Positions 58,836 to 59,674 of a DNA stretch of 64,000 nucleotides are shown here, piece after piece (position 1 is the first letter of the stretch; each line of letters begins with the position of its first letter). The stretch is taken from positions 674,535-738,534 of the forward strand of contig DYGS01000001.1 of NCBI GenBank assembly GCA_020724585.1. The letters are read 5' to 3'. Under the pieces are notes generated by a model. The model saw nothing but the letters and a program-made list of their open reading frames with translations. It had not been told where the DNA came from and searched no databases. This DNA comes from Candidatus Microgenomatus sp. GTDB taxonomy: Bacteria > Patescibacteriota > Microgenomatia > UBA8517. A program made the position numbers and the translations under genes.

Positions 58836-59674
58836 AATTTACACCAATAAGTTCCACGACCACCCAAAAAGAACTTTTCTATTTTATTTTTATTACAATT
58901 TTTACAAATTTCGCCTTGACGACCATAAACTAATGTATGGTTTTGGTATTCACCCTCTTTACCGTCTGGGGTGACAAAGGCAAGTTCACTTGCTCCGCCA
59001 TACTTTAATCCTTCTTTTAAGACAAATTCAATTGCATTATAAAGATTGTTTTGTTCTTCCTCGGTTAATGAGTTTGCTGTTCTTTTAGGACTAATTTTTG
59101 ATAGATACAATGCATCATTTGCATATATATTCCCTACTCCGCCAATTTTTGCCTGATCCATCAGTAAAACTTTAATATTTCTTTTTGATTTTGATAATAA
59201 ACTAATAAAATATTCAAGAGTTAGGTTTTTGAAAGGTTCAGGTGCAAAATTATTAACTCTTAATTCTTCACTCTTAACTAACTTTATCCATCCAAATTGT
59301 CTAACATCGTTATAATACAAATCACCATTGTCTAAATGAAATATGAGATGTGTATGCTTCCCTCCCAATCCTCCAATTACTTTAGGGGATAATGCCTGAC
59401 TAGTGCCTAGCGCCTTTTGCCTAAATATCAGTTGTCCAGTTAACTTAACATGAATCATTATTGAATAATTATTATCAAGGTCAATTGATAACTGTTTTGC
59501 AAACCTCCTAACACTTATTATTTTTGAATTTGTTATTTTTGATTTGTTTCGCCCACCCAGTGATGCAATCTTTTCGTATTTTGGATTTCGAATTTCAACA
59601 TCCTTGATTATCGATCCAACAATAAATTTTTCTAATTGTAATTTTATTGTCTCAACTTCAGGTAATTCCGGCAT
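58823..59674 (-). CDS. mutM: Formamidopyrimidine-DNA glycosylase
   Basis: N-terminal 'MPELPEVE'. C-terminal zinc finger 'CKNCNKNKIEKFFLGGRGTYWCKLCQ'. Contains an in-frame family-C repeat. Confidence 0.9.
   Translation of the reverse strand: MPELPEVETIKLQLEKFIVGSIIKDVEIRNPKYEKIASLGGRNKSKITNSKIISVRRFAKQLSIDLDNNYSIMIHVKLTGQLIFRQKALGTSQALSPKVIGGLGGKHTHLIFHLDNGDLYYNDVRQFGWIKLVKSEELRVNNFAPEPFKNLTLEYFISLLSKSKRNIKVLLMDQAKIGGVGNIYANDALYLSKISPKRTANSLTEEEQNNLYNAIEFVLKEGLKYGGASELAFVTPDGKEGEYQNHTLVYGRQGEICKNCNKNKIEKFFLGGRGTYWCKLCQK

Follow-up and report, generated by a model that had tools for sequence, protein, structure and literature searches.

How did one seven-base repeat come to encode nearly the same peptide inside two unrelated enzymes? 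This question is raised by a stretch of 64,000 nucleotides from Candidatus Microgenomatus sp. (assembly GCA_020724585.1, contig DYGS01000001.1, positions 674,535 to 738,534; the whole stretch is called the window below), in which short head-to-tail runs of AGTGCCT, or AGGCACT on the opposite strand, lie in the genes pth and fpg/mutM. The original prediction, made from the letters alone, was that this repeat, named Family C, had been inserted into both genes and co-opted as coding sequence. Our analysis supported the sharing of one DNA unit and went against the insertion. In Woesebacteria/Microgenomates, heptanucleotide tandem arrays are spread across the clade, and the Family-C tracts are among them; the explanation that we favour, at somewhat better than even chances, is that short imperfect in-frame heptamer arrays persist at tolerant sites and are homogenised in place by misalignment in a 7-nt register, with open reading frames (ORFs) passing only length changes of three units.

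By name, the closest homologues of the window are those of Woesebacteria/Microgenomates, which are part of the Candidate Phyla Radiation (CPR), and its G+C content is 30-40%. The genes that hold Family-C tracts are:
58823..59674, minus strand, fpg/mutM, 283 aa, Pfam Fapy_DNA_glyco and H2TH, PDB Fpg matches with E ~1e-40
48513..49031, minus strand, pth (peptidyl-tRNA hydrolase), 172 aa, Pfam Pept_tRNA_hydro
31773..32825, minus strand, membrane-protein gene, 350 aa, no Pfam domain in the window protein
35000..35533, plus strand, gene of a SpoU-family RNA methyltransferase, 177 aa, Pfam SpoU_methylase with E = 9e-33

The family domains of Fpg/MutM and Pth span their full length (Pfam, and PDB for Fpg). 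The third gene had been described as a GT39-like membrane protein; a membrane protein it is, and the GT39-like label does not come from the window protein, its sole basis being PMT-type domains (PF02366 or PF13231) in some orthologues.

Family C, written (AGGCACT)n or (AGTGCCT)n, consists of 2-4 imperfect units over 14-28 nt. Five tracts were found in the four genes, all of them inside ORFs, and are given here first in the sense of the gene and then in the AGGCACT orientation:
59390..59423, minus strand, fpg/mutM: AGGCAAA AGGCGCT AGGCACT AGTCAGG CATT, read as R85-Q-K-A-L-G-T-S-Q-A-L95; TAGGCAAA AGGCGCT AGGCACT AGTCAGG CATT
48626..48648, minus strand, pth site 2: AGGCAAC AGGCACT AGGCACT, read as R129-Q-Q-A-L-G-T135; TAGGCAAC AGGCACT AGGCACT A
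48682..48698, minus strand, pth site 1: GAG GCA TTA GGC ACT AGA, read as E-A-L-G-T-R; AGGCATT AGGCACT AG
31890..31917, minus strand with the unit in opposite orientation, membrane-protein gene: CTATTGC CTAGTGC CTATTGC CTATC, read as (Y)CLVPIAYL; GATAGGCA ATAGGCA CTAGGCA ATAG
35341..35363, plus strand, SpoU methylase gene: CTATTCC CTATTGC CTAGTGC, read as Y-S-L-L-P-S-A (DYSLLPSA); AGGCACT AGGCAAT AGGGAAT AG

The tracts in pth, mutM and the membrane-protein gene had been named before, and all three places hold the strings described and translate as stated (RQQALGT, RQKALGTSQAL and CLVPIAYL), while the fifth, in the SpoU gene (35341-35363), was absent from that list. In Fpg, R85-L95 is encoded by 59390-59422 on the minus strand, within the peptide FRQKALGTSQALSPKV; in Pth, R129-T135 of ...NRQQALGTK... 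is encoded by 48627-48647 and ...YEALGTR... by 48684-48698; and ...FYCLVPIAYL... (31890-31913) falls in a hydrophobic segment of the membrane protein. Tandem Repeats Finder (TRF) called period 7 at 31893-31917 and 48626-48648, lag-7 arrays were found at 31892, 35341 and 48626, and the 3-4 units of the Fpg tract are interrupted by 3 nt. In an AlphaFold2 model of the window Fpg (mean predicted local distance difference test score, pLDDT, 75.8), residues 81-86 are modelled as beta-strand, 87-96 (the second half of the tract) as a non-regular loop, 97-100 as a short helix and 108-114 as the next strand, in agreement with a tolerant loop connecting two N-terminal-domain strands.

Is it the DNA that these genes have in common, or only the peptide? 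By itself, the heptamer AGTGCCT is not enriched in the window (8 copies, 4.6 expected), but in tandem form it is: the 16-mer CTAGTGCCTARYGCCT, a pattern derived from the same data that were tested, gave 9 matches with at most 3 mismatches against 0.56 expected, and 0 of 100 shuffles reached 9. The 9-mer AGGCACTAG occurs 5 times against 0.17 expected under an order-2 Markov model of the window, and 20 times against 7.2 if one mismatch is allowed. From codon usage, the probability of GCA-CTA-GGC-ACT given ALGT is 0.003, and all three ALGT sites of the window are encoded by [CT]TA-GGC-ACT, while the window's seven other LGT tripeptides have different codons. The likeness of the Family-C tracts thus lies at the DNA level, because codon usage does not account for their identity, and the claim of a shared nucleotide repeat, and not convergence, was upheld in this respect.

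The shared peptide, which had been taken as a sign of common origin, is real and carries little weight. Pure (AGGCACT)n has TAG in every frame once per 21 nt, and two units are readable only as ALGT or GTRH, or on the opposite strand only as CLVPSA or VPSA. The observed readings all fit: ALGT in pth (twice), in fpg and in the Fpg of a related species (L005; related loci are numbered L here), CLVPIAY in the membrane protein, SLLPSA in SpoU and LVPSAYS in L061. The common ALGT peptide is therefore largely forced by the stop codons, and since these restrict the frames, "one peptide" adds little beyond "one DNA unit". The tract of L005 (2300-2330) reads AAG GCA CTA GGC ACT AGA and encodes SKALGTR in the N-terminal variable segment of Fpg, at a place that is not homologous to the tract of the window Fpg, and it has the length of the DTKNILGQK segment of other orthologues, without length change. 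Some copying or a common sequence preference among the loci is likely.

Was the repeat inserted? Classical Fpg does lack the extra segment, as had been said of E. coli Fpg: in the window the stretch is about 13 residues longer than in Lactococcus lactis Fpg by comparison with the PDB. The loop that holds it (TGQLIYRGxxL..LSxKVIGGLGGKHTH) is present in 120 of the 120 nearest orthologues, several of which have it in the same length as the window. In one of these orthologues, P0022, it reads FRHKALDIRQTLSPKV and is the same DNA as that of the window, differing at 8 of 36 positions (codon alignment, hand count); the loop peptides of the closest orthologues are quite unlike that of the window. The residues that are truly extra in the window Fpg lie elsewhere, in KIASLGG (residues 35-41, 59552-59572), a lineage-specific insertion of 6-7 aa relative to the closest orthologues that accounts for most of the length gap (283 against 275-277 aa). 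On inspection its DNA had no heptamer periodicity, and KIASLGG was rejected as a heptamer array.

In Pth, GIENRQQALGT[RK] is common to orthologues of 60-66% identity with almost unchanged DNA, and the DNA of site 2 is conserved in at least five other species (L005, L088, L089, L090 and L091). In orthologues farther away, the RQQALGT positions are occupied by R[VL]QG[IL]G[SD]R, a homologous R-x-Q-G-x-G-x-R. The EALGT of site 1 is the LGT motif conserved throughout the Pth family, with L114, G115 and T116 at least 90% conserved. The membrane-protein segment FFYCLVPIAYLLV is gap-free against the 59 orthologues displayed (of 85 aligned), with its Pro and Tyr kept in nearly all of them, and the SpoU segment SIDYSLLPSALKLP is equal in length to that of several orthologues. 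No target-site duplications were found at the flanks of any Family-C tract, and no inverted termini or palindromic structure in the tracts, which are direct repeats. Thus the proposed repeat insertion and co-option did not hold at the Pth, Fpg, SpoU or membrane-protein sites, where there is no length difference to orthologues: the Pth residues are ancestral, as are the positions themselves in all four genes, and the flanking duplications that had been suggested as a check were not there. A real insertion of another kind was seen in L091 (855-885, the Pth of P0128), where 27 nt with the internal palindrome CCGAC TTC GTCGG split RQQA...GT and add 9 residues.

Do the tracts stand alone? In the window, TRF called 23 period-7 arrays against a mean of 1.9 in 30 dinucleotide shuffles (12-fold), and 8 arrays of period 14 against 0.4. 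An autocorrelation test for three units with at least 85% match, which replaced a 21-nt frame with at least 18 matches that was too strict (3 arrays only), gave 11 lag-7 loci in the window; lags 5, 6 and 8 had 1-2 each, and lags of 9 or more had none. In the window together with related loci, 1.39 Mb in all, the arrays were distributed as follows, with coding and non-coding DNA split by a crude longest-ORF gene model:
Lag 5: 11 arrays in ORFs, 9 outside
Lag 6: 14 in ORFs, 4 outside
Lag 7: 104 in ORFs, 36 outside
Lag 8: 11 in ORFs, 1 outside
Lag 9: 1 in ORFs, 2 outside

Lag 7 thus had 140 arrays in total against 3-20 for lags 5, 6, 8 and 9. The location of these arrays is not predominantly intergenic, although their density per base is about threefold higher in non-coding DNA. 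The arrays of the window include these unit families:
AGTACNN, at 12354, 22756, 29926-30194 and 37318
TATGCTN, at 59687, 60844, 61263 and 61818
TAAATGC, at 46145 and 55099
TAGTGCC, which is Family C, at its five loci

Pairs of 26-mers with at most 3 mismatches formed 41 clusters in the window against 0-4 in shuffles, and these include the Family-C pair of the membrane-protein gene and pth. Among 80 Pth-centred loci from GTDB genomes the distribution is patchy: some genomes have 8-9 period-7 arrays per 10 kb, others none. There are 161 canonical units among 276 TRF arrays, and the sense strand of the arrays is A-rich. Units were similar within one mismatch in 11% of comparisons within a genome and 5% between genomes, and 0 of 500 permutations reached the observed count.

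The same sites were found to carry arrays in several species, and the units differ between them:
SpoU loop, window: CTATTCC CTATTGC CTAGTGC
SpoU loop, L025: CTATCTA CTAGCTA CCAGCTA CTATCTA
SpoU loop, L040: CTGAGTA CTCCCTA CTCTGTA CTAAGTA
Membrane-protein segment, window: CTATTGC CTAGTGC CTATTGC
Membrane-protein segment, L092: ATAATGC CTATAGC ATATAGC ATAGTGC

Within its gene, the SpoU site has the highest lag-7 score in five species (window, L047, L040, L025 and L084), and the same is true of the membrane-protein site in 3 of the 3 species examined (window, L092 and L093, the latter two with other units). In 11 of 50 orthologues, for example as (AGGAATC)3 in L006 and L032, Pth loop 2 reached a lag-7 score of 14/21 or more; at lags 5, 6, 8, 9 and 10, 0 of 50 did. 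The N-terminal variable segment of Pth reached this lag-7 score in 15 of 50. The Fpg loop has period 7 or period 14 in the window and its three closest relatives, with a different unit in each. Period 7 was rejected as a trait of this loop across the Fpg family, as no lag-7 signal came from about 25 orthologues at greater distance, which have the canonical YRGPNLKNPxxLS loop. Adjacent units carry parallel derived states (..GCT/..ACT in the window against ..ATT/..ATT in L085). Length modes lie about 7 aa apart (28 and 35 aa in the Pth segment; 275, 281-282 and 288 aa in Fpg), a spacing that fits quanta of three units (21 nt). The finding of different units at orthologous sites suggests homogenisation in place, by slippage or by templated copying.

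Arrays also lie in the genes of the ribosomal RNAs and next to start codons. The rRNA genes of the window are:
28697-30280, minus strand, 16S rRNA
19484-22564, minus strand, 23S rRNA
17222-17358, minus strand, 5S rRNA

These genes are dispersed, and the gap between 23S and 16S holds about 6 kb of protein-coding genes with tRNA-Ala and tRNA-Ile. The AGTACNN arrays at 29926-30001 and 30130-30194 are inside the 16S rRNA gene, where two near-identical modules of about 80 nt (29905-30010 and 30109-30200) stand in V1/V2 in place of 3-nt tips of helix loops. The modules add 94 and 99 nt, their AGUACNN arrays surround an A/U-rich loop, and they differ from each other by exactly one AGUACAU unit. Their GUAC cores could form a hairpin with periodic U-U mismatches. 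In pth, an A-rich period-7/8 array (AAAACTC / AAAATYC, 48879-48920) encodes the N-terminal insert KNPKIQNSKQFKI, which is absent in short orthologues such as L089 and L090. This array is matched by the 23S rRNA segments 20953-20997, 21674-21778 and 22117-22146 and also at 52259-52292 and 55363-55390; the 23S rRNA gene of the window is about 156 nt longer than the Rfam model. In a thioredoxin-reductase-like ORF (37163..38137, minus strand, Pyr_redox_2), (AAGTACN)5 at 37315-37356 is read in frame as IPSTKYKVLSTKYS near the C-terminus, and a near-identical array stands at the same relative position (13069-13110) in an apparent orthologue in L008, whose Pth is 56% identical. The predicted peptides include RQKALGTSQALSPK besides IPSTKYKVLSTKYS.

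In the related loci, the distance from a non-coding array to the start codon next to it has a median of about 12 nt. In the window, the array at 12352-12408 is 5 nt from the ATG at 12347 and that at 59687-59713 is 12 nt from the fpg ATG. Both of them, together with 60844-60872 and 61263-61291, fill very short spacers, with ends 0-12 nt from start codons, and no Shine-Dalgarno sequence is visible by these leader arrays. Readings of the units as Shine-Dalgarno-like or HutP-like (UAG-N4) signals were rejected, as most array families are without those motifs. Two of the leader arrays flank a 23S_rRNA_IVP/bAvd-like gene (60861..61286). A link to this gene in the sense of a diversity-generating retroelement was also rejected, since neither a reverse transcriptase nor a template repeat was seen and the arrays do not look like the product of adenine mutagenesis.

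How far does turnover in place account for all this? Several of its steps were observed: the period-7 excess, the lack of length change at Family-C sites, the recurrence at the same sites with different units, the clustering of indels around 7 aa (21 nt), and the one-unit difference between the paralogous 16S modules. Family-C tracts would then occupy spots that were substitution-tolerant beforehand, namely two Pth loops, the Fpg loop, the SpoU loop and the hydrophobic segment of the membrane protein, and across the clade the arrays are found in ORFs, in leaders by start codons and in variable helices of rRNA. Slipped-strand misalignment in a 7-nt register would maintain and homogenise the arrays in place, with transient misalignment leading to templated substitutions, and in ORFs only gains or losses of three units (21 nt) would survive. 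Occasional short-patch copying between arrays may have brought the AGGCACT family to unlinked loci of one genome and to the Fpg of L005, possibly from the LGT motif of pth to pth site 2 and on to the Fpg loop. The tract itself would be without function, and the sharing of ALGT would be a by-product of the only readable frames.

Several points weigh against this explanation. To place AGGCACT at unlinked loci, and elsewhere in the Fpg of L005, a further copying event has to be assumed, and none was observed; the seven-base register is unexplained. In Pth, AGG CAA CAG GCA CTA GGC ACT shows 3 synonymous changes in about 33 codons over six species (hand count), whereas elsewhere in pth 29-45% of identical residues use different codons, and this synonymous conservation fits a nucleotide constraint better than neutral turnover. 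The division between coding and non-coding arrays depends on the crude gene model given above. Finally, no slippage polymorphism was seen in Family-C tracts among four independent assemblies, namely three Logan contigs and a 644-kb metagenomic JGI contig (3300029893, Ga0246236_1000003) with the same Fpg, though all of them are 100% identical to the window over 5-15 kb, so that a strain comparison is uninformative on slippage.

A wider account, which we regard as possible and would put forward only tentatively, is a lineage-specific process in a seven-base register, either a property of replication or repair or a templating system. Such a process would write genome-specific heptamer families into tolerant sites of housekeeping proteins, of 16S/23S rRNA helices and of translation-start leaders, remodel loops in 21-nt quanta and homogenise the arrays.

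Next comes selection on the nucleotides themselves, which we consider rather improbable. Here a recognised signal in DNA or RNA would be carried by AGGCACTAG(GCACT) (a candidate form of it is AGGCACTAGGCACTAG), for example an uptake-type sequence that biased uptake and recombination spread, or a protein-binding site, and it would have built up through point substitution, without indels, where genes tolerate it. The roughly 30-fold over-representation of the 9-mer, the conserved synonymous sites of the Pth tract in six species and the same tract in non-homologous variable Fpg segments of two species all agree with it. Classical uptake sequences have a density near one per kb, and the density here is only about 1 copy per 13 kb (five exact 9-mers in 64 kb). 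A selected motif would also have to be squared with several unrelated heptamer families in the window, more than 100 different units in the clade and different units at orthologous sites, and no binding protein or uptake specificity is known. The absence of an indel at any site is what is seen for uptake sequences in coding regions (PMC2817400), and the median of about 12 nt between intergenic arrays and start codons resembles the TAACTGA repeats of Beggiatoaceae (PMC4679880).

The original idea, spelled out here as a small mobile or selfish repeat that entered three genes (pth, fpg and that of the membrane protein) and was then co-opted to code for protein, much like the Rickettsia palindromic elements, is unlikely after the alignments. 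None of the four Family-C gene sites is longer than its orthologues, target duplications and inverted termini are lacking, the Pth tract is older than the divergence of at least six species, and a tract is only 14-28 nt. What speaks for it is the DNA identity beyond codon usage, the short dispersed repeats at about 20-fold over chance in the window (the 41 clusters above), and other families that do coincide with extra length, such as the pth N-terminal insert matching 23S rRNA, the 16S V1/V2 modules of about 80 nt and the 27-nt palindromic insertion of L091.

Coincidence, that is, a conserved Pth LGT motif, a variable Fpg loop and local codon bias put together after the fact, is very improbable. 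It could draw on the bare heptamer not being enriched, on the pth-fpg match having more than 3 mismatches in 26 nt and being absent from the list of 26-mer pairs, and on an ancestral LGT in Pth with stop codons that limit the readable frames. It does not explain the fivefold presence of AGGCACTAG where 0.17 copies are expected, codons with a probability of 0.003 per ALGT that are used at all three sites, or the fact that every site is a period-7 array against a background of 12-fold period-7 excess, with period 7 recurring at orthologous sites. That the peptide [QK]ALGT[RKS] was useful in itself, say as a structural turn, and that the two enzymes converged on it under separate selection is hardly credible, for although the peptide is conserved in Pth orthologues and found in the Fpg of L005, peptide selection would not fix identical rare codons, the other strand of the same DNA gives the unrelated CLVPIAY and SLLPSA in two other genes, and the loop peptides of the closest Fpg orthologues are quite different.

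A phase-variable contingency locus, for which a long near-perfect repeat would be needed, was also considered and rejected, as the tracts are 2-4 imperfect units in the housekeeping genes pth and fpg and the four assemblies are invariant. The gene pth is essential in model bacteria.

Some other features of the window were recorded. The octamer CTATCGTC occurs at 3400, 7716, 16266, 17262, 34364, 34420 and 49406 (7 against 0.55 expected; 0 of 100 shuffles reached 7), with one copy inside the 5S rRNA gene and another where tRNA-Glu begins, and is unrelated to the heptamer arrays. A pair of 90-nt inverted repeats (23693-23782 and 24834-24923) brackets the ORFs 23842..24681 and 24726..25010, neither of which had a Pfam match, and part of this region has a 79%-identical copy about 50 kb away on the same contig (L001 1-246); the region may be a small mobile element. 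An ATP-dependent DNA ligase of archaeal/eukaryotic type (50880..52580) and a stand-alone 5'-3' (FEN-like) exonuclease (61291..62199) are encoded near the tracts, and any bearing of these enzymes on the handling of lagging-strand flaps and short duplications is speculative.

What does the Family-C tract mean, then? Taken alone it is minor, and it matters as a marker of a regime, mutational or selective, that acts strongly and specifically in an uncultured lineage of the CPR, in which arrays persist at the same sites across species, in housekeeping enzymes and rRNA, while the sequence of the unit turns over. If confirmed genome-wide, this would help to explain the lineage-specific short inserts and hypervariable loops of CPR proteins, the small expansion segments of CPR rRNA and recurrent low-complexity peptides (IPNSKFQ, STKYKVL and ALGT, for example) in predicted proteomes, and it would offer a natural system for the old idea that the footprint of the replicative polymerase underlies heptamer slippage. 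Should the wider account of a seven-base-register process be true, it would be an undescribed route by which protein loops and rRNA expansion segments evolve in minimal-genome bacteria. For annotation, such tracts should not be taken for inserted mobile elements or functional motifs.

How do these arrays compare with known systems? DNA uptake sequences (PMC2817400) are likewise over-represented motifs that lie in genes without indels, in less constrained segments, and give recurrent peptides, but they are a single fixed motif, much denser and not tandem, whereas the arrays here are sparse and tandem and have many unit families. The Rickettsia palindromic elements and similar repeats of the miniature inverted-repeat transposable element (MITE) kind (PMC1779305, PMC10969869) are also dispersed, translated in housekeeping proteins, found in RNA genes and tolerated at surface positions; they are palindromic, 100-150 bp long and add length, unlike the Family-C direct repeats of 14-28 nt, which add none. 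The TAACTGA repeats of Beggiatoaceae, cyanobacteria and Bacteroidetes (PMC4679880), the mechanism of whose spread is not known according to that study, are heptamers in direct repeat. As here, they have 2-6 copies, many stand a few nt upstream of start codons, and some are inside ORFs with the stop codons of the repeat dictating the coding strand and frame. They differ in having one dominant unit per genome, with related heptamers rare, against many units here, and their copies in ORFs are mostly at protein ends or in hypothetical proteins, while those described here are inside conserved enzymes.

The closest parallel is given by the bacterial heptamer repeats, such as the short tandemly repeated repetitive (STRR) sequences of cyanobacteria, GGGAATC of Xanthomonas and GGGGAYT of Nostoc (PMC4692102). 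According to this paper, which cites Mrazek et al. 2007, heptameric simple-sequence repeats are over-represented in many bacteria and slippage tied to the polymerase footprint has been proposed. As in the window, there are seven-base units head to tail in few copies, a specific excess of period 7, several dispersed unit families per genome, and length and sequence that vary between related species, with slippage as the proposed source. The known repeats are reported to be mainly intergenic, whereas about three quarters of the arrays here are in ORFs (pth, fpg and the thioredoxin-reductase-like gene among them) and others are in 16S helices; compared with STRR-like repeats, the present arrays are short (3-6 units), imperfect and in a CPR host. 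The literature searched yielded no account of heptamer repeats for CPR, Patescibacteria or Woesebacteria. In kind, the arrays are known bacterial heptameric simple-sequence repeats, and what is unusual about them is that they lie mostly in the ORFs and rRNA of a CPR lineage and that their units turn over while the sites persist.

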